Source of the DNA: Candidatus Poribacteria bacterium
GTDB taxonomy: Bacteria > Poribacteria > WGA-4E > WGA-3G
Assembly: GCA_965198235.1 (NCBI GenBank)
Contig: OZ240248.1
Location: forward strand, 1,664,001 to 1,728,000
Reading direction: 5' to 3'
Length of the DNA stretch: 64,000 nt
Shown: positions 8,788 to 63,185 of the stretch, in pieces
How the letters are laid out: every line of letters begins with the position of its first letter
Position numbering within the stretch: the stretch's first letter is position 1
Program-made: the position numbers and the translations under genes
The notes under the pieces: model-generated
Told to the model about the DNA's origin: nothing
Databases searched by the model: none
The model's input: only the letters and a program-made list of their open reading frames with translations

Positions 8788-9762
8788 CTATATCGTCAAG
8801 GACAGGAACAGTTCCTCAAGTGACATTTCAGTCGTGTGCATTTCAAGCAGTTGCCATCCACGTTTGACGATGGTTGCTGCTACTTCTGAACGGATGTCGG
8901 TCGCCAGTGTATAGTGAAGGTGGAACGTCGCCGTGTCATCCGTATCAGTATCGATCTGATCGACTTGAATCACGTTTGGTATGTCGTGGAGTTCGGTTGA
9001 TATATCGTCTGCTGGTGCTCCTGCTACCTCAAGTGCAAGAATGGAGGAGGCAACTTGCAAATTCTCTGTATTACGGGTAGATCCATCGCTCTGTCTGGGG
9101 GCGGCACGTCCATCTTTCAACAGAACATCCCCTGTAATTTTACCACGACTGATGATAATCAACCGTTCGCATGTGAGACTGGCTTCGGGTAAGATGTGGG
9201 TGCTGAACAGGATAGTCCGTTCCTTGCCGAGTGCTTTGATTAGTTCTCGAATTTCGACAATCTGCCGTGGATCCAATCCGGAGGTGGGTTCATCGAGAAT
9301 TAAAACGTCAGGCTCGTGAATGAGTGCTTGTGCTAAGCCGACGCGTTGTCGAAAACCGCGCGATAGTTGTCCGATAATCTGATGCCGGCGTTCGGTGAGA
9401 CCGCATGCCTCAATGGCATTATCCAGTTGCCCTTTGATGCTATTACGCGGCACACTGCGGATCTTTGCCATGTACATCAAGTACTTCGTCACCGTCATTT
9501 CCGGATAGAGCGGAACGTTTTCGGGGAGGTAACCGATGCGTTTCCGAACCTCTCGCGATTCTTTGAAAACATCATATCCGGCGACGGTAACGCGTCCGCT
9601 ACTCGCCGGCATAAAACAGGTGAGGATTCGCATTGTCGTTGTTTTTCCTGCTCCATTAGGACCGAGGAAGCCGACAATTTGTCCCTTGTCTACTTGGAAG
9701 GAGATGCCCTTGAGTGCTTGGAAGGGACCGTAGTTTTTGGTGATATTTTGAACTTCAATCAT
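8788..9762 (-). CDS. ABC-2 type transporter ATP-binding protein (GldA-like)
   Basis: GPNGAGKTT, LSRGFRQRV, ILDEPT, H-loop. Confidence 0.92.
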   Translation of the reverse strand: MIEVQNITKNYGPFQALKGISFQVDKGQIVGFLGPNGAGKTTTMRILTCFMPASSGRVTVAGYDVFKESREVRKRIGYLPENVPLYPEMTVTKYLMYMAKIRSVPRNSIKGQLDNAIEACGLTERRHQIIGQLSRGFRQRVGLAQALIHEPDVLILDEPTSGLDPRQIVEIRELIKALGKERTILFSTHILPEASLTCERLIIISRGKITGDVLLKDGRAAPRQSDGSTRNTENLQVASSILALEVAGAPADDISTELHDIPNVIQVDQIDTDTDDTATFHLHYTLATDIRSEVAATIVKRGWQLLEMHTTEMSLEELFLSLTI

Positions 9763-9967: not shown

Positions 9968-9990
9968 TCGTTCGTTAAGCGGGGCGCGGT

Positions 9991-32507: not shown

Positions 32508-32605
32508 TTAAATGTTTTCACCTCCTTCTTCTTTAAGTATCAAGGGCAGTAAACAGGTGCGGAGCCAATATTCTATAGGGCCCTATAGGTCCTACAGGGA
32601 TAGTG

Positions 32606-33604: not shown

Positions 33605-33756
33605 GATGGTGTTCGTCGAATTCCGACGCGATCGAGGACATGTACGATTTTTATGTGCTTATATCCGCTACCCATCATTATTGGGAGAGGTTGGACTTCA
33701 TCGCGGAAATCGCCGTGAAATGTAATGGAACGGTGCCCGGCGTTAATCGTTTAAAA
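33562..33756. mobile_element. ~195-bp MITE-like junction element with ~60-bp imperfect TIRs (family A)
   Basis: Left arm is the reverse complement and right arm the direct form of the module gaaacgwagtggaacggtgnccagatttaatngtttaaaa; contains the murC stop codon. Confidence 0.8.
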
Positions 33757-35107: not shown

Positions 35108-35280
35108 TTTTTTAACGATTCGCAAGGCGTTAAGTCAAGCGATTAGGTCCATAACGGTTTTCATTGGGAAGTCGCCTGCGCCGTTGTTGCAGGCTGACCT
35201 CATTTTTTATTCGCGCTGGAATTCACCGAAGACCACCGTGAAACGAAGTCGAACGGTGACCAGAGTTAATAGTTTAAAAA
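35108..35280. repeat. Junction element, family A
   Basis: Homologous to 22045-22240; abuts murC ATG and encodes the last codons and stop of murG. Confidence 0.85.
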
Positions 35281-36465: not shown

Positions 36466-36529
36466 GATTTGAGTCTATTAAAGGACCTCATCCGGAGTCC
36501 CTCGCCTTACAAAATCAAGCAATTTGGTA

Positions 36530-37798: not shown

Positions 37799-37861
37799 CG
37801 TTGTGCTCTTAATCCTTTTCTGTGTTGTCTCGATCCTAAAAATCCATGTTTATGAATAGTT

Positions 37862-39307
37862 CTAATGAAGGGGTTGGAGCGCGTCAACTGCTTCTTTAAA
37901 ATCGGTACCTCTTGCTTTGTAATCGGGGTACATATCAAAACTCGCATTTGCCGGGGACAACAGGACGACATCGCCCGGTGACGTGTGTTTATGTGCCATC
38001 TGCACGGCTTTTGCCATTGTTTCAGCTTTCATTATTTTCGTGGTATTGGCGAGAGTCTTTTCAATCTGTTGGGTGTACTCTCCGAGCATTACTGCCCCTT
38101 TAACCTTAGTTTGAACAATTTCACGCAAAGGCGTGTAATCATTACCCTTGTCATACCCTCCCATTATCAGTAGAACCTGGGAATCGGCTAACGATTCAAG
38201 AGCTGCTTTGACGGCTGCCACGTTTGTCGCTTTTGAGTCGTTTATGAATCGGACCCCTTCTAAGGTCCGCACCAACTCAAAAGCGTGGGATAAAGCGGGG
38301 TGCGACCGATCGAAGCATTGAAGTGCTTTTCGGATCTCTGCCCGTGTTACACCAAAAATCTGTCCTACAGCAATAGCGGCGAGGACGTTCTGTACATTGT
38401 GCGCCCCTGGAAGTGGAATGTCTATGATGTCACATATCTTCTCGCGTGTCTCATTCTGCTGCGCGAAAAGCCCCGAACCCTCTCTAAATGTTCCTGAGAA
38501 CGACAAATCTTCAGGAGCACCTTTGTCTGTAAAGTAGACCGCTTCCGCCGATGTTGATGCTGCGAAATCTTTGACAGATGCATCTGAATCATTGAGAACT
38601 ATCCAGTCTGCAGTCGTTTGGTTGTTAGAGATTTTCTGTTTTGCTTCGCAATAGGCGGACATTGTTCCATGTCTGTCCAAGTGGTCGCGAGACAAATTAA
38701 GCACAACGCTAACCTTCGGATGAAAGGTCACGGTGCTTTCCAACTGAAAACTACTTGCCTCAACAACGACTATATCTCGACTTGTAAGATTTTGAACCTC
38801 CGCTGCCAATGGAACACCGATGTTGCCAGCAACGCGAACGTTTGGAAATCTACCACCGGCTTTTAGTATGGCAGCTGTGAGCAGCGTCGTTGTTGATTTA
38901 CCTTTCGTGCCAGTGATGGCGACAATAGTTGCTGGACATACGCTCGCGGCAACCTCCAATTCTGCGAGGATTGGGAGGTTTCTCGACCGCGCCTCGCACA
39001 GGATCGGAATATCAAGCGGTACACCCGGGGAGGCCACTATCAGGTCTGCATCTGTAATGCATTCCAAAGGATGCCCGCTAAAATATGTTCGATACGGATT
39101 ACAGATGTCTGAAAATCTACTGTTAGCGATCTGCGCTTTGCTTGGCTCTGAGGACTCATTGAGCGCAGCAATTTCTGCTGATAGTGTTTCACGAGAACGC
39201 GTATCTGTAAGCGTAACAACGGCGCCGTGTGAATATAGTAATTTCGCCGCGGCGATCCCGCTCCGATTCAAGCCAAAAACTGTAACCCGTTTTCCTTGTA
39301 ATTGCAC
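37862..39307 (-). CDS. murD: UDP-MurNAc-L-Ala--D-glutamate ligase
   Basis: SPG, GTKGKSTT, GNIG, SSFQL, DHLDRH, NDSKATN, LLSPA; start taken at GTG 39307 (VQLQGK). Confidence 0.94.
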   Translation of the reverse strand: MQLQGKRVTVFGLNRSGIAAAKLLYSHGAVVTLTDTRSRETLSAEIAALNESSEPSKAQIANSRFSDICNPYRTYFSGHPLECITDADLIVASPGVPLDIPILCEARSRNLPILAELEVAASVCPATIVAITGTKGKSTTTLLTAAILKAGGRFPNVRVAGNIGVPLAAEVQNLTSRDIVVVEASSFQLESTVTFHPKVSVVLNLSRDHLDRHGTMSAYCEAKQKISNNQTTADWIVLNDSDASVKDFAASTSAEAVYFTDKGAPEDLSFSGTFREGSGLFAQQNETREKICDIIDIPLPGAHNVQNVLAAIAVGQIFGVTRAEIRKALQCFDRSHPALSHAFELVRTLEGVRFINDSKATNVAAVKAALESLADSQVLLIMGGYDKGNDYTPLREIVQTKVKGAVMLGEYTQQIEKTLANTTKIMKAETMAKAVQMAHKHTSPGDVVLLSPANASFDMYPDYKARGTDFKEAVDALQPLH

Positions 39308-39612
39308 TTTTTTAATTATTAAATCTGTTAACCATCGAAGAAATCCGCAGAAACACCCAAGCAAAAACCCCAAGCAAAAACACTCGTGCTTTAACATTTA
39401 TAGCGGAGTCGAGTTGATGGTTAAACCGCTCCACTTCGTTCCGCGGTGGTTTTCGGTTAATTCTAACTGCCTCTGGAATCTGAACGTTATTTAACAAAGT
39501 CTGTTAGGAGGATCAAAAACCTGCCCGAAATGAAATTAGGTTTCCTTAAATGGCATAATTTGTCTTTGCTTTACATTTGGAGGGCAGTCCAGGATCCCCA
39601 TAATTAAAAAAA
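39308..39612. mobile_element. 305-bp composite junction element (family A) between mraY and murD
   Basis: Inverted ends ttttttaattat / ataattaaaaaa; contains modules shared with 9763-9880, 5405-5440, 43259-43295 and the gaacgaagtgga core. Confidence 0.85.
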
Positions 39613-39615
39613 TAG

Positions 39616-40719
39616 TTACCGAAGTTTCAATGTGCTTAAGGCGATTAAGACCAAAATAAGCCCCACAATCCAAAATCGGATGACAACTTTGGATTCCTTC
39701 CACCCTGAGAGCAGGAAGTGATAATGGATAGGAGACATTTTGAACACACGTTTGCCAAATGTACGGAATGACCAGACTTGGATGATGACCGATAATGTTT
39801 CAGCGACGAAAATGGCACCGACTATCACGAGTAGGAATTCCTGCTTTATAAGCACTGCTACCGTTCCAAGTGTGGCACCGAGTGCCAGCGATCCAGTATC
39901 TCCCATAAAGACTTGCGCCGGATGCCCATTATACCATAGAAATCCCAAGCCTGCCCCGACCAATGCTGCACAGAAAACTGCTGTAACTTCTCCTCCTACT
40001 GGTAGGTGAAAGATGTCCAGGTACGCTGCAATCTCGCTGTGGCTCGTCATGTACCCGACTATACCTAAGGTCCCTGCAACAAACAGGGTGCATCCAATTG
40101 CTAATCCGTCCATTCCATCCGTAAGATTGACTGCATTAGAGGCCGCAACTATGACCAGAGTTGCAAAAGGGATAAACAGAATACCTAAATTTGGCTGAAC
40201 CTCTTTGAAAAAAGGAAGGATCAGCGATGTCCGTGTTGTTAAATCTCCAGTGTGCGTGGGACCCCACTGGTAAAGATAACCAGCAATCGCTAATGCTCCT
40301 ACTGTTTGAAGTCCAATCTTATGCCAACCGCGGAGTCCTAAGGATTGTTGCTTTACCAATTTGCTGTAATCATCTAAGAATCCGAGTCCACCGAACCAGA
40401 GTGTTGTTAGGATCATCAAGTAGATATAGGGTTGATCCAAACGCGACCAGAACACTACGGATATCAGGACGGAAACGATAATAAGCACGCCTCCCATTGT
40501 TGGAGTCCCTGCTTTACTTTGGTAATCTTTTGGTCCCTCTTCGCGTATGTGTTCGCCGATTCGGAGTTGTTTGAGCCGATTTATCATGAACGGTCCCAAG
40601 ACAAGCGCGATAATCAGTGATGTTGCCGTTGCATAAATTGCTCGGATACTGATGTAACGAAAAATGTTGAATGGCGAAAAGACATCAACGAGGTTCTCAT
40701 ATAGGAGATGGTAAAACAT
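39616..40719 (-). CDS. mraY: Phospho-N-acetylmuramoyl-pentapeptide transferase
   Basis: KAGTPTMGG, DDY, NAVNLTDGMDGLA, FMGDTGS. Confidence 0.96.
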   Translation of the reverse strand: MFYHLLYENLVDVFSPFNIFRYISIRAIYATATSLIIALVLGPFMINRLKQLRIGEHIREEGPKDYQSKAGTPTMGGVLIIVSVLISVVFWSRLDQPYIYLMILTTLWFGGLGFLDDYSKLVKQQSLGLRGWHKIGLQTVGALAIAGYLYQWGPTHTGDLTTRTSLILPFFKEVQPNLGILFIPFATLVIVAASNAVNLTDGMDGLAIGCTLFVAGTLGIVGYMTSHSEIAAYLDIFHLPVGGEVTAVFCAALVGAGLGFLWYNGHPAQVFMGDTGSLALGATLGTVAVLIKQEFLLVIVGAIFVAETLSVIIQVWSFRTFGKRVFKMSPIHYHFLLSGWKESKVVIRFWIVGLILVLIALSTLKLR

Positions 40720-40747
40720 TTTTCTTAAAAGGCGACCGGTGATAATT

Positions 40748-41944
40748 TCACGCGGTGCCTCCTAACTTATTGCCCTTCTTCAATTTGGCAAGACTCGCAC
40801 CTGCTTGGCTTAGGAGGTTCGTCGTATATGTATAAGTTAACGCATTTTTCTCTGCATGTGCCGTAAATGCTAAGTCGATGAGATCGGATACAAGATGCGG
40901 AAACTCAATGCCTTGATGCGTCCACAAGTAGTAACTATATGATCCGGGAATGGTGTTGATTTCATTCACGTAAACGTTCTCGTTTGCATCTACGAGAAAA
41001 TCGATACGTGCTACACCGGCGCAATCTAAAACCTGAAAGGTATATATCGCAAGATTTTGTATATATAACGTCAATTCTTCTGAAATGGGTGCAGGAATTT
41101 TCCTGTCCGCACCTGCCATTCCTGAAGATTCTCCATTTTGATGGATGTATTTATCATCAAAACTGAGAAAGTTTGCCTGGGTCACAGGTTGTTCGCAGAC
41201 AGAGGCAGTTGGATCGTCCGTACCCATTACAGCACAGTTGATTTCGAGAGGATTCTCAACCGCTTTTTCGACGAGAATTCTACGCGAATAATGTCCCGCA
41301 ACTTCCGCAGCACCGCAAAGTTCATCTTGGTTTTTAACATGGCTGACCCCGATACTTGAGCCGCTCATTGCGGGCTTGACAAACAGTGGGTAAGAAAGCG
41401 ATGCTTCCACCTTTTTGATGAGTTCGTCACGGCGCGTTTCCCAATCATGATGAGTCCAACATAAATACGGAAGTATTGGAAGTTCATTTTCGCTGAGAAT
41501 TGCCTTCATCATGATTTTATCCATACCGACAGCGGCACCGACGACTCGCGCACCAACGTAGGGCAGATTCATAAGCTCAAGTAACCCTTGAAGCGTTCCA
41601 TCTTCGCCGTGCATGCCGTGTATTGATGGAAAGACGATATCTACTGGAAGAACAGCTCTTTTCTGACCGAGCCACTGTTTAGAGGTAACAACAAATTGCG
41701 GGTTCGGATGAAATTCAACGCTGACTTTGTCGAAGTCGGCTGGGTGTGGCAGATTTCCATCAGTAAAGGTAGACAAATCGCGAAGGGCATCGCCGGTTAA
41801 CCACTCGCCATTTTTTGTGACATAAATCGGGATAACGTGATGGTTTTCTTGTAAAGCGATGCAAACTTGGTGTGCAGTTACGATTGAGACTTCGTGTTCA
41901 GGTGTGCATCCGCCAAATATAAGGGCTACATTGTATTTTGACAT
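40748..41944 (-). CDS. ddl: D-alanine--D-alanine ligase
   Basis: FGG..EHEVS, HG..GEDG.LQG, GSSIG, DKY, NEINTIPG. Confidence 0.92.
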   Translation of the reverse strand: MSKYNVALIFGGCTPEHEVSIVTAHQVCIALQENHHVIPIYVTKNGEWLTGDALRDLSTFTDGNLPHPADFDKVSVEFHPNPQFVVTSKQWLGQKRAVLPVDIVFPSIHGMHGEDGTLQGLLELMNLPYVGARVVGAAVGMDKIMMKAILSENELPILPYLCWTHHDWETRRDELIKKVEASLSYPLFVKPAMSGSSIGVSHVKNQDELCGAAEVAGHYSRRILVEKAVENPLEINCAVMGTDDPTASVCEQPVTQANFLSFDDKYIHQNGESSGMAGADRKIPAPISEELTLYIQNLAIYTFQVLDCAGVARIDFLVDANENVYVNEINTIPGSYSYYLWTHQGIEFPHLVSDLIDLAFTAHAEKNALTYTYTTNLLSQAGASLAKLKKGNKLGGTA

Positions 41945-42049
41945 TTTTTTAATGGCTTTCAGCAGTTGGCTATCGGCTATCAGTTAAGAGGTTTTCGTTT
42001 AATAGAAGCCTTTTGTGACTGATGGCTGACGGCTGATGGCTGACGGCTA
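41945..42049. repeat. Heptamer-armed element (family B)
   Basis: Left ctatcgg/ctatcag, right (ctgatgg ctgacgg)x2; core ATCAGTTAAGAGGTTTTCGTTTAA identical to 44506-44529. Confidence 0.75.
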
Positions 42050-43699
42050 TTCCTCGTAGTTGTCCGGGAGGTCGTTTTCAAAAAGGACAACATCACCGGC
42101 TTGCACTTGTGTTGCTAAATGTTGTTTGACTTCTTCGAGGTTGAGTGTGACAATGATTTGCTGGCTCGGATAGTGGACGGCTTTCAAGCCGTCTAAAATC
42201 GGGGTAGTCCGCTTGGGTCCCACTAAAATAACCAAATCACAGACATCGGCTGCGTGTTCTCCGAGACGCTTATTTTCTTCGTATTCCCTTTCGCCGAGTT
42301 CTACCATCCCAGGTGTCACTAACACCTTTTTACCACCTTGGATCTCGGTGAGGACTTCAAGAGCCGCTTTCGCGCCGACTGGGTTCGCGTTGAAGCTATC
42401 GTCAATGATGGTTACGTTGCCTTCACTGGAGGTCAATTGCAAGCGGTGTGGAACAGGTTCAACGTTAGCGATTGCTACCCGAATTTCCTCAAGCGTCATC
42501 CCACATTCTGTTGCAACTGCCGTTGCAGCGAGAATGTTGGATACGTTATGCCTGCCCAAAAGTTGTGCCCGAATTTCTGCCGTCCCGACAGATGTGTGTA
42601 TTGTGAAAGCAAGACCTTCGTCGGTGTGTTGAATGTTCGTGGCAGTTAACTCGGCACGCTCAGCAGCCGAGGCTATAGGAAATGGTTCCGTCGCGTACCG
42701 GCGCACTGGGTTGCCATCATGCTCCCGTTTATCGGCAAGTCCAGCGCAAATTTCATTGTCGCAATTGAAGACTGCAAGCCCGCCCGGTGGGAGTGATTCG
42801 ATCAACTCATATTTCGTTTTGGCAATATTCTCTATGTTTTTGAATCGTTCTAAGTGCTGTGGTCCAACAGTTGTGAGAATGCCGATTTGGGGGGATGCTA
42901 AGTTACACAATTCTCGGATGTCGCCACGTTTGTAAGCCCCCATTTCAACGATGAATATCTCATGTTCGGCGGTAAGTTCCCCGCGGATGACCTTGCAGAT
43001 ACCCATTGGTGTATTGTAACTGTCGGGTGTCATCAATGTGTTAAATTTTTGGGACAAAATCTGATATAGAATATATTTAGTACTCGTCTTGCCGTAACTT
43101 CCTGTGATCCCGACAACTTTGGGCTGGAACGTTTTGATTCGCTTTCTTGCTGAAAGGAGATACGTCCCATTTATGGTACGCTCCAAAGGGTAGATAAGAA
43201 AATTAGCAATCGTTAAATTAATGACGGTTACTTCGCTAAAGAGGAAAATTGAAATTCGCCATCGAGGAAACGCCCAAGCAAAAACACTTGTCTTTGCTAT
43301 AAGCACGAGTGTTGTCGCAATGCCAATGAGCAAGCAAATCGAGAGCCCAAACACCCGTTTCGCGCGTGCCGTGTAAACGAGTGGTTTTTTTGCTTCAACC
43401 TTTTTCCGTTGCGTGCTCATATAGATTTGAAACCCTCCCCAAACCAAGCACAGCACAGGAAACAGCCACGTATCGTTATATTGTGGGTAGAACGCGGTCA
43501 GGATGAGAATTCCACCAATAGCGAGAATCTCTTTAGTTTCAAAACAATTCCTCAGATGCTGACGCATCCACTTCAGGTACCGACCCGTCTTATAGCCATC
43601 GAGTTGGAGTATATGGAGCCCCCGCGTAGTCCTGACGACTGCCCTTACTAAACAGGTTAGCGTCGCGAAGTAGAAAAATACAGTACTCATCGTTTCCAA
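42047..43699 (-). CDS. murF: UDP-MurNAc-tripeptide--D-Ala-D-Ala ligase with N-terminal membrane domain
   Basis: GITGSYGKTSTK, NTPMG, EMG, DDSFNANP, GMVELG, ENDLPD; ~170-aa hydrophobic N-extension. Confidence 0.88.
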   Translation of the reverse strand: METMSTVFFYFATLTCLVRAVVRTTRGLHILQLDGYKTGRYLKWMRQHLRNCFETKEILAIGGILILTAFYPQYNDTWLFPVLCLVWGGFQIYMSTQRKKVEAKKPLVYTARAKRVFGLSICLLIGIATTLVLIAKTSVFAWAFPRWRISIFLFSEVTVINLTIANFLIYPLERTINGTYLLSARKRIKTFQPKVVGITGSYGKTSTKYILYQILSQKFNTLMTPDSYNTPMGICKVIRGELTAEHEIFIVEMGAYKRGDIRELCNLASPQIGILTTVGPQHLERFKNIENIAKTKYELIESLPPGGLAVFNCDNEICAGLADKREHDGNPVRRYATEPFPIASAAERAELTATNIQHTDEGLAFTIHTSVGTAEIRAQLLGRHNVSNILAATAVATECGMTLEEIRVAIANVEPVPHRLQLTSSEGNVTIIDDSFNANPVGAKAALEVLTEIQGGKKVLVTPGMVELGEREYEENKRLGEHAADVCDLVILVGPKRTTPILDGLKAVHYPSQQIIVTLNLEEVKQHLATQVQAGDVVLFENDLPDNYEE

Positions 43700-43717
43700 T
43701 TTCTAATTTTCCTTAAC

Positions 43718-44470
43718 TTAAAAATTCAAGAAGTTTGCGACAATTCGGCAAAACTGTGGAAACCTGTCAAGGTACGAAAAATGTCCCGCTTCCTTTAGAA
43801 CAACTAATCCTGCGTCAGGTATTTCCTTCTCCATGATTTGTCCGAAAGACACGGGTGTATCCTTGTCGTTTTCACCCCAGATTAACAGTGTTGATGCGGT
43901 TATCCGAGGCAAGAGCGAGCGCAGGTCCTGATTCACGACTTTGACAAGCGTGGCACGCATATCTCCGGCATTCTGGTAGTCTTTGGAGCCGGCACGTGCG
44001 GACATCGCGTCTGCAATGAGAACACCATATTTCCCGCATCGACGGAGCAATTTACCGATTTTTGCCAAACCTACGCGAAGATGGTATTTTGCGGTTCGAC
44101 GCGGTTTGATTCCCGCGCTGTCAACCAAGATAAGTTTATCGATTTTTTCAGGGTATTCCGCTGAGACGATAATCGAAATTCTACCGCCAAAGGAGTGCCC
44201 GATGAAGTGAGCCTTCGGAATGCAAAACTTCTCCAGAAACGCTATAACGAACTGCGCATAGTCGGAGGTATTCCACGCTGTAGGTGGAATCTGACTCTTA
44301 CCGAACCCCGGCAAATCCAGTGCGTAGACTTTGTGGGATTGTGTGAGCCACTCAAAAACCGGTTGAAAACTCGCCGCTTCTCCACCCCAGCCATGCAGGA
44401 GGAGAACAATGTCACCCTCTCCGGCAACCTGATATGAGGTCTTCAGACCGTTAATCTCCGTACTCTGCAT
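43718..44470 (-). CDS. Alpha/beta hydrolase
   Basis: LLHGWG, DLPGFG, GHSFGG, WGEND, GHF. Confidence 0.9.
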   Translation of the reverse strand: MQSTEINGLKTSYQVAGEGDIVLLLHGWGGEAASFQPVFEWLTQSHKVYALDLPGFGKSQIPPTAWNTSDYAQFVIAFLEKFCIPKAHFIGHSFGGRISIIVSAEYPEKIDKLILVDSAGIKPRRTAKYHLRVGLAKIGKLLRRCGKYGVLIADAMSARAGSKDYQNAGDMRATLVKVVNQDLRSLLPRITASTLLIWGENDKDTPVSFGQIMEKEIPDAGLVVLKEAGHFSYLDRFPQFCRIVANFLNF

Positions 44471-44572
44471 GTTTTTTAAAGGCTATCGGAAACCATCGGT
44501 TCTCCATCAGTTAAGAGGTTTTCGTTTAACGTTCGTTTAACGGAAGTCTTTTTGCTGATTGCTGATTGCCAT
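44471..44572. repeat. Heptamer-armed element (family B)
   Basis: Same 24-nt core as 41979-42002; right arm gctgattgctgattgcc encodes the murE C-terminus AISNQQ. Confidence 0.75.
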
Positions 44573-46054
44573 TTCCAAAAAATCTGAGGCGATAACCCTA
44601 TCGTCAAAGGGAAATCTTTTGCCATTAATTTCCTGATAATCCTCATGTCCTTTACCCGCGATTACAACAACATCACCGGATTTTGCCGTCGCGATTGCGT
44701 GATGAATAGCGTCGCGTCTCTCTGAAATACACACATACTCGGTATCATGTGGTAAATTTGACGCAATTTGCGCGATGATTTCATCAGGGGCTTCGGTGCG
44801 CGGATTGTCGGAAGTAATCACGCTATAATCCGCAATTTGGGCAGAAATATTTCCCATCTTAGGACGCTTTCCCTTATCCCTATCGCCACCGCATCCGAAA
44901 ACACAAATCAAATTACATTCAGCAACACGCTTGGCGGCAGTCAACACATTTTCTAAACCATCGGGTGTATGTGCATAGTCAACGATGACAGCGAAATCCT
45001 GTCCTCGATCAACAAGCTCAAATCGACCGGGAACTATAGTAGCGGCGAGACCTTCCTGAATTGCTGAGAGCGGACAATCGTAACGAAGCCCAACAGCAAT
45101 GGCGGCAAGGGCATTGTAAAGGTTGTATTCTCCGAGTAATCGTAACTTAGCGGGGATTCGTCCATCTGGCGTAACCGCTGTAAACACCAATCGATTATGA
45201 GAAAAATTAATATCCTCGGCATATAGATCCGCTTTTTCACCAAGTCCGTACATCGTAGGAGGGGTTTGTAACCCCGAAACCTTGCAGGCGTGGGCAATGC
45301 GCTCCGCTACCGGTGAGTCGCTGTTCAAGATCGCAACGCCTTCCTTGTCGAGTTGCTCGAACAACATCAGTTTCGCCTTTAAATATGCTTCCATCGTTTG
45401 ATGGTAATCAAGGTGGTCCTGGGTGAAGTTGGTAAAAACAGCCGTATCGAAGGTAAGCCCTGCCAGTCGCTGCAGTGCTAACCCTTGGGAGGAGGTTTCC
45501 ATCGTAACGTATTCTACGTTGTCCTCAGTAAACTGCTTGAAAAGAGCATGGAGTGCGAACGCATCGGGGGTTGTGAGGGAAGCAGAGAGTGTTTCCTCTT
45601 CGCCTTGGGCGTTTGTGTACTGGTGTCCGACTGTTCCAATGAGTGCTGTTTTCCGCCCGCTTGCCTTGAATATGGCATGTATAAGGTGTGCTGTTGAGGT
45701 TTTACCGTTGGTGCCTGTAATACCGATGAGTTTAAGACGTTTTGCAGGGTTTCCGTGCCAATTGGCGGCAAGTAAGGACATCGCTCGGCGTCCGCAGGGA
45801 ACTCGCACATAGGTAATCGGCTTTTCTTGGGTCTCTATAGTTGTTATCGGTTTTTCACCAATGACAACTGCTGCTCCTTTTTGAAGTGCATCTGGAATGA
45901 AGTTGTGACTATCCACGCTGATGCCTTGATAACAGACAAAAACATTACCGAATTCGACTTTCCGATTGTCACTGGCAACACCCGTAATATCAATATCCAG
46001 CGATCCAGAACTTGTGGTAATGTTAAGCCCACGGAGCAGTTGACGAAGCTTCAC
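44537..46054 (-). CDS. murE: UDP-MurNAc-dipeptide--diaminopimelate ligase
   Basis: GTNGKTST, TTPD, DHLDYH, DYAHTPD, GCGGDRD, DNPR, AGKGHE. Confidence 0.96.
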   Translation of the reverse strand: MKLRQLLRGLNITTSSGSLDIDITGVASDNRKVEFGNVFVCYQGISVDSHNFIPDALQKGAAVVIGEKPITTIETQEKPITYVRVPCGRRAMSLLAANWHGNPAKRLKLIGITGTNGKTSTAHLIHAIFKASGRKTALIGTVGHQYTNAQGEEETLSASLTTPDAFALHALFKQFTEDNVEYVTMETSSQGLALQRLAGLTFDTAVFTNFTQDHLDYHQTMEAYLKAKLMLFEQLDKEGVAILNSDSPVAERIAHACKVSGLQTPPTMYGLGEKADLYAEDINFSHNRLVFTAVTPDGRIPAKLRLLGEYNLYNALAAIAVGLRYDCPLSAIQEGLAATIVPGRFELVDRGQDFAVIVDYAHTPDGLENVLTAAKRVAECNLICVFGCGGDRDKGKRPKMGNISAQIADYSVITSDNPRTEAPDEIIAQIASNLPHDTEYVCISERRDAIHHAIATAKSGDVVVIAGKGHEDYQEINGKRFPFDDRVIASDFLEMAISNQQKDFR

Positions 46055-47850
46055 AGCCCCTCTCCTTTCAGCGTCGGGGATTGTTTTGTCACAACAGGTG
46101 AAAAGTCGGAGGACTTTTGAAGTTCAGGTCCGAAGAACTCGGTTTGCTTCAAGTATTGCATTGTTTGGGCAGCGACTTGCTGAAAAAGAGGTCCGGCGAT
46201 TTGTCCACTGAAACGTGCCCCTCTCGGTTCATCAAGCATGACGATTATTGATACCATAGGATTCTCTGCTGGTAGGAACCCCATGAAGGACATGATCTCT
46301 TTTCCTGCGTAGCCTCTACCATGTTTTTCAGCTTTTTGGGCTGTTCCTGTTTTTCCTGCCACGCGATATCCTTCAACACGTGCCCGCCGGCCACTACCAT
46401 CTTCAACCACACCGACAAGTATCTCTGTCATCTGTTTCGCTACTATCGGGCGGATTACCTGTCGAACTTCAATGGGGTATTTCTTTTCAATCACCTTTCC
46501 ACTACTGTCCCGAATTTCTCGGGTAATATGTGGACGGAGGAGTTTTCCACCGTTCGCAATGACGTTTAACGCGCTCACCATCTGAAGAGGGGTCACCATA
46601 ATCCCTTGTCCAAACGGGACGGAGCCAAGGGAATGAGTGTCCCAGTGCTTTACGGCATGAAGACTTCCGCTGTGTTCATAAGGCAGGTCTACACCGGTCG
46701 CTTTCCCAAAGCCGTACTTTTCAATGTAAGTATTAAAGTTCTCATATCCCAATTCCTTCACAACTTTAATCATACCGATATTACTGGATTTGTGGAGGAC
46801 TTGTTCTAAGGTAAGCCATCCTTTTCCCGCGACGTCGCGGATGATTCTACCGTTTGAGAGTCGGTACCGTCCATTCTCGCAAAAGACCGTTGACTCAGGG
46901 CTCATAATACCCTCGTTCAGGACAGCGGAGGATGCAACGATTTTAAAAATCGAACCGGGTTCATACGCAAACCAAACACCGAGATTCCTTTTTGCTTGCT
47001 CGCTCCCGAGCGTGTAATGATTCAAATCGTACGAGGGGTAGCTTGCAAGTGCCAATATCTCTGCCGTTTTTGATGCCAAGACGATGACTGTACCCCGTGG
47101 TGCGTTCCATTTTCGACACGCTGCTGCTAATTCCTGCTCGGCGACGTACTGAATATATTCGTCAAGCGTCAAGACGACACTATACCCATAATCGTCAGTG
47201 GAGTCACCGTTGGTTAACAAGTTTATGGGTTCATTGCGGGCGGCTTCTGCCCGCCGCGCCGCTTGTCGCTGCCTCGCGCTCAAAAGATAATTGTTGTACT
47301 GATACTCAATTCCCTCACCCATATTCTGATCGTTTATATGTCCAATGACTTGGGCGGCGAGTTTCCCTTTCGGATAGGCACGTTGCTGTTCGACTTCGTG
47401 CTTTATACCACGGATGTCTTTCTCAATTGCTCGAATCTCGTCAAGCCGTTCGTAACCCATATCCTTTTTGAGCCACACAAACCGTTTATCCTTGCGGCGA
47501 AGTTGGGTAAGCAATTCAGAGTCGGGAACACCTAAAACCGGGGCAAGCCTGCGAGCAGTTTCACTCGGATCGGTCTTCATATACGTTGGATCAGCATAGA
47601 CGGAGAGGCTGTGACGACTCAGAGCTAAAACATTCCCATGTCTGTCAAGAATTTTGCCTCGTTTTATCGTTGCTGTGCGCGGGGAGCTCCAAGGGTGTCC
47701 AGTTGGTCCTTGGCGTGCCATATCACTGGAGATCTGTACTTTGAACAGTTTGCCAACCAATAATAGGAAACCCACCTGCAGAATAATGAGCACGAAAACC
47801 AATCGGCGAATAGATAAATATGAATTGTTTTTCATGTTTTCCCTATCCAA
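46051..47850 (-). CDS. ftsI: Class B penicillin-binding protein FtsI
   Basis: RGKILDRHG, EPGSIFK (SxxK), SSN, KTGT. Confidence 0.93.
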   Translation of the reverse strand: MDRENMKNNSYLSIRRLVFVLIILQVGFLLLVGKLFKVQISSDMARQGPTGHPWSSPRTATIKRGKILDRHGNVLALSRHSLSVYADPTYMKTDPSETARRLAPVLGVPDSELLTQLRRKDKRFVWLKKDMGYERLDEIRAIEKDIRGIKHEVEQQRAYPKGKLAAQVIGHINDQNMGEGIEYQYNNYLLSARQRQAARRAEAARNEPINLLTNGDSTDDYGYSVVLTLDEYIQYVAEQELAAACRKWNAPRGTVIVLASKTAEILALASYPSYDLNHYTLGSEQAKRNLGVWFAYEPGSIFKIVASSAVLNEGIMSPESTVFCENGRYRLSNGRIIRDVAGKGWLTLEQVLHKSSNIGMIKVVKELGYENFNTYIEKYGFGKATGVDLPYEHSGSLHAVKHWDTHSLGSVPFGQGIMVTPLQMVSALNVIANGGKLLRPHITREIRDSSGKVIEKKYPIEVRQVIRPIVAKQMTEILVGVVEDGSGRRARVEGYRVAGKTGTAQKAEKHGRGYAGKEIMSFMGFLPAENPMVSIIVMLDEPRGARFSGQIAGPLFQQVAAQTMQYLKQTEFFGPELQKSSDFSPVVTKQSPTLKGEGL

Positions 47851-47913
47851 TTAATGTAAATTTGAGCACCTTCCAACAGAGCAAAAAGGGCACCTTAACC
47901 CTAAAAGACTAAA

Positions 47914-48240
47914 CTATTTATCCCAGACTATCTGTGAGGCTTCGGTGGGTTCAACCATTCCGAGCTCAGTCGCGATTTGCCGAATCCTTTGAACACCCGT
48001 TAAGGTTGATTCTTTCAATTCAAGTCGATGAATTTCGTCCTGAATTTGACGCTTCTGCCTCTCGAAAGTAGGCTGTCGTTGCAAAGCAACCTTCTTGGCG
48101 TAAGATGAGAACCAGATGCTGCCAGAGAAGGTACAGAAAGATAGCACCAGAACAATATACGCTAACGGAAATCTCTTTTTCGGTTTTGGGTCTTCTGTAT
48201 TCGTAATGCGTGTCGAATGACTATTATGTAATGTTTGCAT
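47914..48240 (-). CDS. ftsL: Cell division protein FtsL
   Basis: TM plus coiled coil ending RI..IA.ELGM..P; located between rsmH and ftsI. Confidence 0.75.
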   Translation of the reverse strand: MQTLHNSHSTRITNTEDPKPKKRFPLAYIVLVLSFCTFSGSIWFSSYAKKVALQRQPTFERQKRQIQDEIHRLELKESTLTGVQRIRQIATELGMVEPTEASQIVWDK

Positions 48241-48342
48241 TTATTCAACTACCTAAACGGAGTTGGAAGATGGACTCTATGCTTCAATCCTACGTCCTTT
48301 TACAACTATTCCGCACATATTCATTGGGTGACAAAGGCTCTC

Positions 48343-48500
48343 TTTTTTAAAGGTTGAATACTGTATTTTTAAACGTTGAATGCTGTATTTAAGATACATT
48401 ATAATTGTAAAATTCATCTACTTTCGCAAAGACGAATGGACTTAACCAAAAACCACCGTGAAACGTAGTGGAACGGTGACCAGATTTAATAGTTAGAAAA
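48343..48500. repeat. Junction element, family A, with internal 22-bp tandem duplication
   Basis: ttttttaa start; tttttaaaggttgaatactgta / tttttaaacgttgaatgctgta; right module ccaccgtgaaacgtagtggaacggtgaccagatttaatagtt. Confidence 0.75.
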
Positions 48501-48542
48501 TCATTTTTTCGTTCATAGGGCGGGAAATAGAGGCACCTTACG

Positions 48543-49505
48543 CTACAATTTGCGAGCGACGCGCAATTTAGCACTCCGCGCTCGCGGGTTATGTTGAACT
48601 TCAACGGTGTCTGGTAATATAGGACGCTTCGTGAGAATTTCCAGAGATGCGGTGTGTTCGCAAATACAGATGGGCGTTTTCGGTGGACAGACGCACGCCC
48701 GTGCGCATGTCTGGAAACGGTGCTTGACTATTCTGTCTTCAAGTGAATGAAACGTGATTACACACAGACAACCGCCGGGTTTCAAAAGCTGTATCGCAAC
48801 GTCCAAACCCATCGCAAGATTTTCCAATTCGGCGTTGATATGAATGCGGAGTGCCTGAAATACACGAGTCGCAGGATGGATTTTGGATACGCCCTTGGGG
48901 ACGGCTCGCTTGACAATCTCTGCGAGTTGCGTTGTTGTCGCTATCGGTGTTTCTCGTCTCGTCTGGATAATCCGATAGGCAATCCGTTTCGCGAATCGTT
49001 CTTCGCCATACCGTTTGAAAATATCAACAAGGACATCCATTGGACTGTCGTTGACGACCTGCATGGCTGTGAGAGTCGCTTCCCGCTCTCTATTTAACAC
49101 CTGCCGCGCATTCATGCGCATATCTAACGGACCGGGACGGTTAAAACTGAAACCTCGGTGTGGTGCGTCCAGTTGCAAGGACGACACCCCTAAGTCAAGC
49201 AGGATCCCGTCTACAGCATGAACCGAGTGTCTTGCTAATAAGACATCCATTTCAGCAAAATTACCGTTAATGAGAGAACAACGCTCCCCGAAGACGTGTA
49301 ATCTACCTTTTGCGATAGTGAGTGCCTCAACATCTAAATCAATTCCGATCACACGCCCGTTCGGTGCGGAAGTCTCTAAAATAGCAGCACTATGCCCTCC
49401 GAGTCCCGCAGTGCCATCTATGTAAACACCCTCCGGTTTTGGTCTGAGAAAGTCAATTACTTTATCACATAAAACTGATATGTGGTGTGTATTCATAGTT
49501 TTCAC
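48543..49505 (-). CDS. rsmH: 16S rRNA m4C1402 methyltransferase
   Basis: DGT.G.GGHS, DLGVSS.QLD, LDMRM, FQALRI, FHSLEDR, NPRARSAKLR. Confidence 0.96.
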   Translation of the reverse strand: MKTMNTHHISVLCDKVIDFLRPKPEGVYIDGTAGLGGHSAAILETSAPNGRVIGIDLDVEALTIAKGRLHVFGERCSLINGNFAEMDVLLARHSVHAVDGILLDLGVSSLQLDAPHRGFSFNRPGPLDMRMNARQVLNREREATLTAMQVVNDSPMDVLVDIFKRYGEERFAKRIAYRIIQTRRETPIATTTQLAEIVKRAVPKGVSKIHPATRVFQALRIHINAELENLAMGLDVAIQLLKPGGCLCVITFHSLEDRIVKHRFQTCARACVCPPKTPICICEHTASLEILTKRPILPDTVEVQHNPRARSAKLRVARKL

Positions 49506-50644: not shown

Positions 50645-52336
50645 ATGAACGCTGATCCTATCAAACTTGAGCTTTATAAAAATATGCTGACCTCGGTTGC
50701 TGAGGAGATGGGTGTAACGCTGCAGCGTACAGCGTTCTCACCGAACATCAAGGAACGGCTTGATTTTTCATGTGCCGTGTTTGATAACATGGGTAAGATG
50801 GTTGCACAAGCCGCGCATATTCCTGTGCATCTCGGTTCCATGCCACTTTCGGTTCTTGCGGCTATTGCCCATACAGAAATGTTGCCCGGCGATATGATTG
50901 CCCTTAATGATCCATATCGCGGTGGCACTCACCTACCAGATATTACGCTCGTCGCCCCTGTCTTCTCAAATGAGGATATTGTTGAAGAAGAATCAAAAAA
51001 AGTGCGTAGCCTGAAACGAAGTGGAAGGCGGATATACGGAAAGGACTTTTCTTCACACAACCCGACTGAACGAACCGCAAGGAAAATTAAAAAACCTGTT
51101 TTCTTTGTCGCAAATCGCGCACACCACGCGGACGTGGGTGGGATGACGCCCGGTTCAATGCCGATTGCAACGAGTGTAATTCAGGAAGGCATCCGAATTC
51201 CACCCGTTAAACTCATCCGAGGTGGAGAATTGGACACCGACCTCTGGGAATTGATTCTCGCGAATGTCCGCACGCCTGAGGAGCGCCGTGGCGATATGGA
51301 AGCGCAGATCGCTGCGAATCGTGTCGGTGAACGGCGACTACAGGAGATGATGGGCAAGTATGGTGCGACAGAGATTACGGCGTACATGCAAGAACTCTGC
51401 GCGTATGCAAGTCGAATGGTCAGGGCACGCCTTCGGGAAATTCCGGATGGACGTTACACATACACTGATGTCCTTGATAATGACGGCATCACTGATGAGC
51501 CTATTGAGATACGGGTCGCGATTGAGATCGAAGATGATACCGCATTAGTTGACTTCACTGGCACGGCTAAGCAGGTCCAAGGTTCAGTTAACGCGATTTA
51601 CGCGATTACGCTCTCTGCTGTTTTTTATGCTTTTCGATGTATCGCTGGTGCAGACGTTCCTGCCAATGCTGGGTGTTTGGAACCGATCCGAGTTGTTGCG
51701 CCAGGGGGAACTGTTGTGAACGCAAAGTTTCCGGCAGCGGTTGCAGGGGGAAATGTCGAAACATCGCAGCGTATTGTTGATGTTCTGCTTGGGGCATTGG
51801 CGCAAGCGTGTCCTGATCAGATTCCCGCTGCGAGTTCCGGCACCATGAATAACCTCACAATAGGGGGTTATGATGTTTCGCGCGGGAAGGATTTTACCTA
51901 TTACGAGACTATTGCAGGTGGGATGGGCGGGCGCCCAAACCGGGACGGAATTGATGCCATCCATACGCATATGACCAATACGATGAACACGCCTATAGAG
52001 GCAATTGAGACGAACTATCCGATGCAGGTAGCGGCGTATGCGATTCGACATGGGACAGGCGGGGCAGGGAAATTCCGAGGAGGTGCAGGTGTCATTCGGG
52101 CACTACGCCTTCTTGCGAACGCGGAGGTCACCATCCTCTCAGAACGCCGGACGCGGGGTCCTTACGGCTTACAAGGCGGTGAACCGGGAAAACCGGGGCG
52201 TAACTTGCTGATCCGTGATGGCGTGGCGCAGCCCCTCACTGGCAAAGCAACCTTTTCTGCGCGCGAGGGTGATGTTATCCACATAGAAACACCCGGTGGT
52301 GGTGGATATGGGAACAAGGGAACAGCGAACTCCTGA
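50645..52336 (+). CDS. Hydantoinase B/5-oxoprolinase subunit with a repeat-derived in-frame insert
   Basis: [37 protein letters not shown]. Confidence 0.92.
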
Positions 52337-52420
52337 ACTGGTGTTTTTATAATATTCATTCCAGAAATGTTGGGAAATCGGTGTTCGTCTCCAATGTCAT
52401 ATTCCCAAACAAAAATGAAG

Positions 52421-52934
52421 ACTTGAGTTGAGAATAAGCCGGATTCTGTATGTGACGGTCATTCATCTGGGATGGATGTTACCATCCACCTCAAGCGGTT
52501 ACCTGGGGACGAGGTGGGCACACCTGCGTATGTCCCCCATTTACCTTGCTCCAGATGGGGTTTACCGAGCTCCATAAGTCACCTTATGGACTGGTGCGCT
52601 TTTACCGCACCGTTTCACCTGTACAACGCTCTTTTAACCATCTGCCAATTTCTTCGCCTTCGTCCGTTGTCCGAAGGCGATCTTCTTTAAAATCAACAGT
52701 CCCACTATCTGCGGAATATATCACTTGATTTTAACACAACCCATTTTTTGACAACGTCAAAAAATGAACAAGAAGGCCCATAATTAAAAAAACGTTGTAG
52801 TCTACTCTCTGTTGCACTTTCCATAGCGTCGCCGCTCCTGGGTGTTACCCAGCATCTTGCCCTGTGGAGTCCGGACTTTCCTCATCCCAATAGTAAGATT
52901 ACGATCAGGACGCGACCATCTACTCAACTCAAGT
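52421..52934 (-). ncRNA. rnpB: RNase P RNA (type A) with a greatly extended P12
   Basis: Minus strand has GAGGAAAGUCCGG, GGAAAGUGCAACAGA, GGUAAACCCC, AGAUGAAUG, ACAGAAUCCGGCUUA; P1 gagttgag / ctcaactc. Confidence 0.95.
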
Positions 52935-52940
52935 GCTTCT

Positions 52941-52970
52941 ATTATACCCCATTCAACAACTTGATAGCAA
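52941..52970 (-). promoter_or_regulatory. sigma70-like promoter for rnpB
   Basis: TTGCTA-N18-TATAAT ending ~7 nt before the predicted 5' end. Confidence 0.55.
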
Positions 52971-53136
52971 CGAAATCGAGAAATATTCAGAAGTATTCAG
53001 TTGTCAGAGAAGAGATTGTCGGATATCCGTTTTTGATTGCTGGCAACTGCAGTGCAGTTGGGAAATTGCGGCAAAGGAAAGGGATAAAAAAAGGCGCGCT
53101 TTGGAAGCGCGCCTACAAAAACGTTATAGCAAAAGA

Positions 53137-57951: not shown

Positions 57952-58530
57952 TTAACCCGAGGCGACCTCGACGCGTCTGTAGATGTCCTGCAAACCGAGT
58001 TCACAGCCTATGGAGAGAAGCGATAGGACATCCGCAAGTCCCTGGAATTCGGTCTGCAGCCACTCGGACCCTTGACGACAATAATGTTCAACGTGAACCT
58101 TGTCTTGGGAGATGAGAAGGTAATCTTTTAAGGAAGCAATTTGCTGATAATGCTCAAATTTCTCGCCTCTATCGTAAACTTCGGTTGAGGGGGAAAGCAC
58201 TTCCACGATGAGAGTTGGATTCAGAAGGGTGTCAAAAGTATTGTCTTCAGCGCGCGGTTCACCACAAACAACGACAACATCGGGGTAAAAATAGGAGTCT
58301 ATTTGGGTAACCTTCACCCGCATATCGCTTGCAGCGACTTGACACTCTCCTCCGATTAATTGGTTGTAGAGTTGATTCGCCACATTCATTGTGAGGAAAT
58401 TATGCGCGAAGCTTGCACCCGACATTGCGACTATCTGTCCGTTCAGATATTCGTGTTTCGTCGTCGCCTTGCGCTCAAAAGCGAGATATTCTTCAGGTGT
58501 TAGGTAGGTTCGGGCTGCAGCGGATGCCAT
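57952..58530 (-). CDS. Uma2 (DUF820) family endonuclease-like protein
   Basis: EYL.FE, HEYLNG, YPDV.VVC, VEVLSPST..YDRGEK. Confidence 0.9.
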   Translation of the reverse strand: MASAAARTYLTPEEYLAFERKATTKHEYLNGQIVAMSGASFAHNFLTMNVANQLYNQLIGGECQVAASDMRVKVTQIDSYFYPDVVVVCGEPRAEDNTFDTLLNPTLIVEVLSPSTEVYDRGEKFEHYQQIASLKDYLLISQDKVHVEHYCRQGSEWLQTEFQGLADVLSLLSIGCELGLQDIYRRVEVASG

Positions 58531-58611
58531 GCATGCCTCCATAAATCTTGCTTCAGAGGGGTGCCGGTTCCGAGAGAGAAACCGGCAGTGCGAGTTACGA
58601 AAAAAATGCGT

Positions 58612-61840: not shown

Positions 61841-61952
61841 AAAAAAAGTGCAACTTTTTTGCAACTCGTTTGTAGTAATGTTAACCTTGAAACGTGTGAA
61901 ATTACAATAAGGAAAAAAAGTGCAACTTTTTTCAAACTTGTTTGTAGTAACG
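61841..61952 (+). promoter_or_regulatory. Duplicated ~40-bp promoter/operator upstream of ECF sigma gene
   Basis: aaaaaaagtgcaactttttt..aact.gtttgtagtaa at 61841 and 61913. Confidence 0.6.
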
Positions 61953-61980
61953 ACAACCTCACAATGCGCGGAGTTGAAAC

Positions 61981-62526
61981 ATGACAGAAGATAAATTCCT
62001 TGAGCTTGTCCATAAACACGAGGCTCAGATTTATCAGCACACCCTCTATCTACTCGGAAATCGGGAAGATGCAGAGGATATAACACAGGAGACGTTTATC
62101 AAAGCGTGGCAACACCGTACCGAATTGCGTCTGAAGACCGTGCGTTCATGGTTGCTAAAATGTGCGCAGAATCTCTGTTTCAATCTGCTAAAACGGAACA
62201 AATTTCAGGTGCACTTAACAGAAGGAGACGATACAGATCCCGAAACAGAACTCGAAACTTTAATGCACGCACATTCCGGTCGATCAAACCCAACACCAGA
62301 TGAAATTGTGATCGAAGAAGAACTCAAAGCGTCCGTACAGTGTGCCATTAAGAAATTGCCGCCAGAGATGCGGTCGGTGATAGTTATGCGGGAATTGAAC
62401 GGCATGAGTTTCAAGGAGATTGCAGAAGTATTAGAGCAACCCGAAGGGACTGTGAAATCAACCGCATTCCGTGCCCGTAAAAGGTTGCGGGAGTTTCTGC
62501 GTCCTTACTGGAGAAATGACAAATGA
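61981..62526 (+). CDS. ECF RNA polymerase sigma factor
   Basis: DAEDITQETF, SWL...A.N, region 4 SFKEIAEVL..PEGTVKS...RAR. Confidence 0.93.
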   Translation: MTEDKFLELVHKHEAQIYQHTLYLLGNREDAEDITQETFIKAWQHRTELRLKTVRSWLLKCAQNLCFNLLKRNKFQVHLTEGDDTDPETELETLMHAHSGRSNPTPDEIVIEEELKASVQCAIKKLPPEMRSVIVMRELNGMSFKEIAEVLEQPEGTVKSTAFRARKRLREFLRPYWRNDK

Positions 62527-63185
62527 ACAACTTTCCTCTTCACCAGGATTTATCTTGCATGGAAGCTCAGGACAACTTAGAGGCATACCTCGCCGATGAG
62601 TTGGATACAGACCTTCATGCGACAATAGCGGCGCATGTTGCGTCCTGTTCAACGTGTCAAGATGAAGTTCGCTTTTCACAAGCGATTGGTGAAGCATTAC
62701 ACGAACTTCCGAGACCTGAGTCGCCACCAGAAATCTTCAACGCGGTTGAGGCTTATGTTCGCGCGCATCCCAATAAGGGACCGAAATGGCTACATCGGAT
62801 ATTCCAACTGTTCACGTTCTCGGATGATTTAACTGCGTCACTCGCTCGCGCAGGGGCGTTAGCGTGTCTCATCGGAGTCGTCCTGTTTGGTACTTATCAG
62901 TATCACCAGCATAAGAAAGTTACACAAGCCTCACGCGACCTCTATTATGCGCTCGGTAAGTTGAATTACGCAGTAGAGCGAACCGGCACCGTCGTTAACG
63001 AAAAACTTCCTGATGTGCGGATTAATGAGGTTTCAAGTCGTCCCTTTGTTCAGATTGAAACAGCTTCCCGCCACGCATCGAAACAGACGAAAAATATTTC
63101 ATCAGCGATTCACCGGAGTCTGGATAGCCTTAACCGGTTACCGCAGAACGCTCTGGATACAAAAAGCGATCAACGTTCATATTAA
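62523..63185 (+). CDS. Zinc-binding (zf-HC2) transmembrane anti-sigma factor
   Basis: C...HVASCSTC motif, one TM helix, ATGA overlap with sigma gene. Confidence 0.85.
   Translation: MNNFPLHQDLSCMEAQDNLEAYLADELDTDLHATIAAHVASCSTCQDEVRFSQAIGEALHELPRPESPPEIFNAVEAYVRAHPNKGPKWLHRIFQLFTFSDDLTASLARAGALACLIGVVLFGTYQYHQHKKVTQASRDLYYALGKLNYAVERTGTVVNEKLPDVRINEVSSRPFVQIETASRHASKQTKNISSAIHRSLDSLNRLPQNALDTKSDQRSY

Follow-up and report, generated by a model that had tools for sequence, protein, structure and literature searches.

A lineage-specific palindromic insert in the P12 loop of a Poribacteria RNase P RNA, and its probable origin from a gene-junction repeat

Genome-wide repeats called STRR, said to be tandem heptamers, were reportedly found by Vioque in 1997 inside helix P12 of rnpB in heterocyst-forming cyanobacteria. 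The intervening sequences of 23S and 16S rRNA are stem-loops of 100-200 nt that replace the terminal loop of a conserved helix, occur sporadically among close relatives and are removed by RNase III with no re-ligation. Correia/NEMIS, ERIC and REPIN doublets are short, non-coding palindromic repeats with inverted ends or a hairpin doublet, sited in transcribed gene junctions. For the P12 insert described here, the closest precedents are the cyanobacterial P12 tandem repeats and an excised P12 segment in Thermodesulfatator indicus. As described in PMC9945441 (RNA 2023;29:376), the type A RNase P RNA of T. indicus carries a P12 expansion of ~70-87 nt, and Northern blot and RACE demonstrated that it is excised. 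The cuts flank an A/U-rich part of P12, next to a U run that directly overlies the lower stem; in the closest relative P12 is short and lacks the expansion. One passage of PMC2858038 calls P12 'sometimes dispensable (e.g. in cyanobacteria)'. That the length of P12 varies is known. So are large expansions of this helix, of which one is cut out in vivo (PMC9945441, in its account of T. indicus), and the origin of such expansions is rarely visible.

The rnpB gene considered here lies in the window, by which we mean the whole 64-kb stretch of DNA that was analysed. It encodes a bacterial type A RNase P RNA (Rfam RF00010) on the minus strand, 52931..52420, with a covariance-model score of 289.2 bits where the gathering score is 100. 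The alignment takes in model positions 1-367 of 367, so the gene is 512 nt long; an earlier note, made from the letters of this DNA, had put it at ~510 nt. No other RNA gene is found by Rfam in the window. Both P4 strands, P13/P14, P18 and the GGU of L15 (within GCAAGGUAAAUGGGG) align with high posterior probability, and a fold of the full 512-nt RNA has P1, P3, P8, P9, P13, P14 and P18 as expected. All of the surplus length falls between model positions 136 and 137, which is the P12 loop. A consensus scan places a promoter-like site ~9 nt ahead of the mature 5' end; the adjoining upstream gene, for a class II ribonucleotide reductase, has its own terminator-like hairpin at 53114-53092. In the comparison with the nearest relative, L111, RNA positions 410/417 show a compensatory change, U-A to C-G, which argues that the core is under structural constraint, and several G-U pairs have become G-C. 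The coordinates of all features are collected in Table 1.

Relatives were sought in one contig scan with a very general 26-nt pattern from the P4 region, which hit at least 119 loci in many phyla. Among the matches listed, three are close relatives of the rnpB in the window, all labelled Candidatus Poribacteria: L111 (OZ246979.1), with 336/354 = 94.9% identity outside P12, L056 (JAJEEK010000032.1), with 90.1%, and L085 (JAKZSX010000119.1), with 84.9%. Their rnpB genes score 276-296 bits with RF00010 (the complete L056 gene, 354 nt, 296 bits), and in L056 and L111 a class II ribonucleotide reductase gene also stands beside rnpB. The spacer between the two genes varies, from ~110 nt in the window (52977-53085) to ~29 nt in L111, and in L056 ~1 kb of unrelated DNA (894-1906) separates them. 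In a four-sequence alignment, P12 of all three relatives is a hairpin of 22 nt, UACAACG-(U/C)CUCAAAG-CGUUGUA, and the window has the same 7-bp stem unchanged, with the 8-nt loop replaced by 164 nt (52792-52629). As 3/3 relatives have the 22-nt hairpin where the window has 178 nt, the alignment shows that the insertion into the P12 loop is specific to this lineage; the three also supply the empty sites that are looked for with a MITE. The earlier note had named a long P12 shared by all relatives as the outcome that would speak against it, and the comparison gave the opposite. As the window is nearest to L111 and short P12 hairpins recur in progressively remoter relatives, a single gain on the branch of the window would be the simplest history. 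Across the wider set, the spacing over P12 is 189 in the window, the largest value among the matches listed, against a median of 37 and 33 in the Poribacteria relatives; this is a crude regular-expression measure that worked in 75 of 120 sequences and failed in 45, because of which it gives context only, the failures being short loci or variant flanks. By the same crude measure, long P12 spacings also occur in a Nitrospinota MAG (L016, rnpB 1526-1959, 434 nt; spacing 121) and in an Acetothermia MAG (L078, rnpB 1968-2389, 422 nt; spacing 124), and these may be further P12 expansions.

The P12 domain of the window is closed by a helix of 20 consecutive pairs without a bulge, 52799-52780 with 52641-52622, composed of 13 A-U, 3 G-C and 4 G-U pairs. 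This is exactly the closing helix with four G-U pairs that the earlier note had read, and the three enclosed hairpins that it listed are found as well, together with an inner helix in which 52777-52770 pairs with 52654-52644. The ancestral stem by itself amounts to 7 bp and -6.5 kcal/mol. Directly above it the 13-bp extension opens with seven U (U7) and is made of 9 A-U and 4 G-U pairs with no G-C, at -6.7 kcal/mol. On the sense strand the whole domain folds at -66.8 kcal/mol (z -6.9; matched by 0/200 shuffles), whereas the antisense strand reaches -43.5 kcal/mol, so that the sense fold is better by 23 kcal/mol. The structure is identical when the domain is folded alone and inside the 512-nt RNA, in both the minimum-energy and the centroid prediction, and by this modelling the insert folds autonomously as a three-hairpin domain.

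Table 1. Coordinates of rnpB, the P12 domain, the insert and the junction modules in the window.
Feature	Position	Strand	Basis or remark
rnpB	52420..52931	-	RF00010 289.2 bits; 94.9% identity to L111 rnpB outside insert
Promoter-like TTGCTA-18-TATAAT	52941..52970	-	10/12 consensus matches; consensus match only
Whole P12 domain, 178 nt	52622..52799	-	fold, alone and within 512-nt RNA
Ancestral P12 stem, 5' strand UACAACG	52793..52799	-	identical in 4/4 aligned sequences
Ancestral P12 stem, 3' strand CGUUGUA	52622..52628	-	identical in 4/4 aligned sequences
Insert proper, 164 nt, replacing loop (T/C)CTCAAAG	52629..52792	-	four-sequence alignment, blastn gaps
13-bp helix extension, 5' strand	52780..52792	-	U7 run and most of shared 16-mer
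13-bp helix extension, 3' strand (other inverted terminus of insert)	52629..52641	-	pairing
Hairpin 1, 11 bp, 3-nt loop	52742..52766	-	fold
Hairpin 2, central, from inner ends of both units	52679..52741	-	fold
Hairpin 3, 7 bp, 9-nt loop	52656..52678	-	fold
Unit A, module-like, tail towards 52801	52721..52801	+ (antisense to rnpB)	R1 18.8 bits
Unit B, inverted relative to unit A	52621..52700	-	R1 1.9 bits; homologous to unit A
Junction module 1	5393-5471	-	model R1
Junction module 2, with 21/24 terminus	9753-9883	-	model R1; abuts ATG of ABC ATPase gene 8788..9762
Junction module 3	9900-9977	+	model R1
Junction module 4	22173-22251	+	model R1
Junction module 5	33552-33629	-	model R1
Junction module 6	33688-33767	+	model R1
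Junction module 7	35213-35290	+	model R1
Junction module 8	39397-39469	-	model R1
Junction module 9, with insert-identical terminus (39597-39612)	39501-39620	+	model R1; ends 3 nt from mraY stop
Junction module 10	48433-48510	+	model R1

What is the insert made of? Its halves align as inverted copies with a score of 24, against 8.4 +/- 3.5 in shuffles (0/500 reach it), which identifies it as a palindromic, inverted duplication. Because the halves are inverted copies, the 13-bp extension of P12 is the pairing of the insert's own two ends. Several features of known short elements are present. The insert is 164 nt long and its overlapping ORFs are incidental, of at most 72 aa; its 13-nt termini pair (9 A-U, 4 G-U) in the manner of the terminal inverted repeats of a MITE; and its two units stand inverted to each other with a hairpin in each, as in a REPIN. 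The target-site duplication of a MITE is missing, since comparison of the filled with the empty sites revealed no direct repeat at the two junctions; later mutation could have hidden one. Tandem Repeats Finder returned 0 rows for 52400-52950 at a minimum score of 30, no meaningful ORF was found within the insert, a consensus scan found no promoter reading out of it, and Rfam searches of the insert and one junction element at E up to 10 gave chance-level matches only. A single, weak terminator-like site lies inside it, at 52716-52700. By blastn-short there is no second copy within the 64-kb window, and neither a transposase nor a RAYT gene was found among the 51 window ORFs scanned against Pfam. 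The motif GACAACG occupies the tips of two insert hairpins (52742-52766 and 52656-52678); it resembles the P12 flank GACUACAACG (52793-52802) and also the conserved loop GAAACG of the junction modules described below, and it could be chance, a target preference or the trace of a local duplication. Two genes of a defence- or toxin-antitoxin-like kind, for a fused nucleotidyltransferase-HEPN protein (6711-7469, plus strand) and for a Uma2-family putative endonuclease (57952-58542, minus strand), have no evident link to the insert.

The gene junctions of the window hold a dispersed repeat, a module of ~78 nt present in 10 copies. From the 10 aligned modules we built a covariance model of 78 positions, R1. 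A 6-bp hairpin is paired in 98.3% of the alignment cells, against 69.5% in shuffles (0/500), and its covariation score is 0.844 against 0.263 (0/500 shuffles reach it). The loop is conserved (GAAACGTAGTGGA) and the A/T-rich tail ends in ...ATAATTAAAAAA; two copies have an insertion of 40-55 nt in the loop. Modules are often arranged as inverted pairs that occupy a whole spacer with their tails outward, touching a start or stop codon, as at 9753-9977, 33552-33767 and 39397-39620, and three such spacers belong to the division/cell-wall (dcw) cluster. Of six elements folded, 33552-33767 shows an asymmetry of 26 kcal/mol that favours the strand opposite to the flanking genes. The module matches no Rfam family, and R1 finds none in ~5.3 kb from three Poribacteria loci, too little DNA for a conclusion. 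It may be a mobile repeat, an RNA hairpin or a promoter-like element. A second repeat type of 105 nt (22038-22142 and 35102-35206, 82% identical) makes up the opposite arm in two junction elements; its start, TTTTTAACGATT, resembles the reverse complement of a module tail. A partial R1 match of 20.2 bits at 51009-51029 (plus strand) covers the hairpin only, lies in the coding sequence of a hydantoinase B/oxoprolinase and is probably chance.

The division/cell-wall cluster itself is complete (29774-49505: rsmH, ftsI, three Mur ligase genes, ddl, mraY, murD, ftsW, murG, murC, an ftsQ-like gene, ftsA and ftsZ), with an alpha/beta hydrolase gene (43718-44470) between two of the Mur ligase genes, and several of its spacers are unusually long, ~140-220 nt, and filled with repeats. 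Elsewhere in the window a tandem pair of 47-nt repeats (61841-61887 and 61913-61959, 87% identical) stands directly upstream of a gene for an ECF-type sigma factor (61981-62526) and the zf-HC2 anti-sigma gene that follows (62523-63185); the pair may be a duplicated autoregulated promoter.

The insert and the junction repeat are most alike at their ends. The 16-mer TTTTTTTAATTATGGG occurs exactly at 52777-52792 and at 39597-39612 (both minus strand) and with two mismatches at 9761-9776 (plus strand), and over the terminal 24 nt of the insert 21/24 positions are identical at 9762-9785, which agrees with the matches that the earlier note had seen at the first of these junction sites and, as a resemblance, near 9763. 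Three such matches compare with 0.13 expected in the window and are reached in 0/100 shuffles, although, in A/T-rich spacers, matches of so A/T-rich a 16-mer may be more frequent by chance than global shuffles suggest; neither the 16/16 nor the 21/24 score was reached in 300 shuffles, and blastn of the insert against the window gives the 16-mer an E-value of 0.002. At all three sites the shared motif forms the extreme end of its element: in P12 it lies at the boundary that the relatives define for the insertion, and in the two repeats it adjoins a stop codon and a start codon. The layout is also common to both, two inverted units with their tails outward.

Beyond the ends the likeness fades. 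The best full-length R1 match in the window outside the training set is unit A, at 18.8 bits over 78/78 positions with the hairpin in register, a weak score (E ~0.085 for the whole window, 0.0003 for the 221-nt region); the best R1 score elsewhere, over 21 other loci totalling 74.7 kb, is 11 bits, and unit B reaches 1.9 bits only. In global alignments of the two units with five canonical modules, one of 10 comparisons beat all 300 shuffles, and two further ones were reached by 6 and 17 of 300. A sequence-only profile of the modules (nhmmer) scored the insert at -0.3 bits, with E 15 and a match to the tail only, and the best score in 28/30 shuffled windows was higher. By blastn-short the insert matches the remaining window over its terminal 16-21 nt at most; with the alignments to the junction elements included, the ~140 nt beyond its terminal 16-24 nt have no match elsewhere in the window, and although 10 junction modules are present, only their termini match it. 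The idea of a captured mobile junction repeat, put forward in the earlier note, has thus gained a demonstrable gain in one lineage, a shared terminus and a common two-unit layout, while homology over the whole insert remains weak in both the covariance (18.8 bits) and the profile (-0.3 bits) comparison; the likeness to the dispersed element is confined to 16-24 nt at one end, the other ~140 nt being unmatched in the window. Shared ends with a diverged interior are usual among non-autonomous elements, and we infer a diverged member of the family or a sister subfamily with junction-repeat ends.

Based on these observations, we consider a mobile palindromic repeat of the junction type, captured in the P12 loop and carried there as a tolerated passenger, to be the best explanation and a probable one. 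The host gene would be a working type A rnpB. In the lineage of the window only, a palindromic element of 164 nt would have landed in the apical loop of P12, consisting of two inverted, hairpin-bearing units with outward A/T-rich ends, as in the junction repeats, and being most likely a non-autonomous mobile repeat, MITE- or REPIN-like, of the junction family or a sister subfamily. Because the ends of the element are inverted repeats, the transcript would fold back on itself: the ends pair, and the 7-bp P12 stem with 13 added A-U and G-U pairs would become the 20-bp helix, which carries a self-contained three-hairpin domain while the base of P12 and the remaining RNA stay as in the relatives. 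The ribozyme would tolerate this passenger because P12 is directed away from the catalytic core and its length differs between bacteria. The sequence comparisons and folds show the identity of the gene, the gain in this lineage, the palindromic build, the common terminus and the autonomous fold; mobility of the insert, retention of rnpB activity and absence of a function for the insert are inferred, and a tolerated passenger is the simplest reading.

How does the insert compare with the known systems? Like the reported cyanobacterial case, it would represent a genome-wide repeat that entered P12 of rnpB, a dispensable helix; unlike STRR, it is an inverted duplication with hairpins and contains no tandem array. 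An STRR-type expansion was ruled out, as Tandem Repeats Finder returned no row and the insert, having no tandem repeats, is not STRR-like. It resembles the rRNA intervening sequences in that a stem-loop stands in place of a terminal loop, those being located in rRNA, and it resembles Correia/NEMIS, ERIC and REPIN in being short and non-coding, with inverted ends or hairpin doublets; it differs from these repeats in that no transposase or RAYT gene was found among the 51 window ORFs scanned and no target duplication at the insert. With T. indicus, as described in PMC9945441, it shares a large P12 extra where the nearest relative is short, and an A/U-rich part with a U run above the lower stem; here too the expansion is absent from the relatives and its lower part is A/U-rich. 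Unlike the T. indicus segment, the one in the window is 164 nt long and palindromic, and one of its termini recurs in a dispersed repeat; the account of the expansion in PMC9945441 draws no link to dispersed repeats. A literature search, which covered few subscription journals, found no palindromic or transposable repeat in rnpB P12 and no intervening sequence in an RNase P RNA.

Other origins of the extra DNA have to be weighed against capture. Repeats can cause misjoins and the data come from one genome window, yet an assembly artefact or a dead copy of rnpB is barely credible, for the flanking DNA on either side is collinear and in register, the two junctions sit exactly within a hairpin loop, the insert lengthens this very hairpin, and the rnpB core scores as high as those of the relatives (289 vs 294-296 bits). 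Nothing mobile need have been involved if P12 grew by a local palindrome-forming duplication, for example by template switching, with the likeness to the junction repeat due to chance. The occurrence of GACAACG at both insert hairpin tips, close to the P12 flank, would suit such an event, as would the lack of a visible target-site duplication, the negative sequence-only profile and the interior that is unique within the window. We nevertheless think it improbable: an exact 16-mer lies precisely at the insertion boundary and at the ends of two recognised repeats, the terminus match was seen in 0/300 and 0/100 shuffles, the inverted two-unit layout equals that of the junction elements, and GACAACG also resembles the module loop. 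The earlier note went further than capture and took the insert to be domesticated. A domesticated insert would be kept for a role, such as a platform for a factor that binds the junction repeat, an antisense to mRNA leaders that bear the repeat, or a folding aid. All four non-Watson-Crick positions of the bulge-free 20-bp helix are G-U in the sense of rnpB, the sense fold has the advantage given above, and in T. indicus complementation was impaired when the expansion was replaced (PMC9945441, in its complementation assays). Even so, four of four G-U has a probability of 1/16 under neutrality and the element at 33552-33767 is equally asymmetric, for which reasons domestication is not accepted as established and seems to us very improbable; no observation points to a function of the insert. 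Neither the strand asymmetry nor the G-U pairs were accepted as proving selection, as one of the six folded junction elements is just as asymmetric, on its non-coding strand; and with the insert in one of four lineages, conservation gives no argument for domestication.

A rival of another kind concerns the fate of the insert after transcription. It could behave as an intervening sequence, with RNase III or RNase E cutting the transcript at either side of the long helix's A/U-rich lower part and the distal domain being discarded, so that the mature RNase P RNA would consist of two pieces, joined through the ancestral P12 stem and by tertiary folding. We regard this course, argued by analogy, as possible though unlikely. 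T. indicus P12, in the account of PMC9945441, provides a direct precedent, the 13-bp extension that follows the ancestral stem starts with U7 and is free of G-C pairs, and the relatives lack the expansion; conversely, the 20-bp helix may simply persist, the remaining ancestral stem would have only 7 bp and -6.5 kcal/mol, and the description of cleavage in PMC9945441 does not identify the responsible nuclease in T. indicus. Excision to a two-piece ribozyme is plausible because the helix shares with T. indicus both the U run and the A/U-rich pairs. The full sequence of events, a one-step insertion of a mobile palindrome into P12 followed by excision at the A/U-rich stem to give a two-piece RNase P, is rather doubtful as a whole. 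A captured, tolerated passenger of mobile origin is the reading that we carry forward.

What are the implications of such a capture for RNase P RNA? Existing knowledge of RNase P catalysis is unchanged. The window offers a filled site together with three empty sites at 85-95% identity. The point of insertion, in the hairpin loop, can be placed to the nucleotide, and what was inserted has both the end sequence and the layout that mark a dispersed repeat of this genome. It thereby illustrates how a structured RNA can acquire an extra domain. The gene with and the gene without the insert form a natural pair of constructs, by which one could ask whether a P12 passenger is neutral, aids folding or is removed. 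If both insertion and excision hold, the origin of fragmented P RNA of the T. indicus type would be tied to mobile palindromic repeats, and so, by analogy, would that of the intervening sequences of rRNA.
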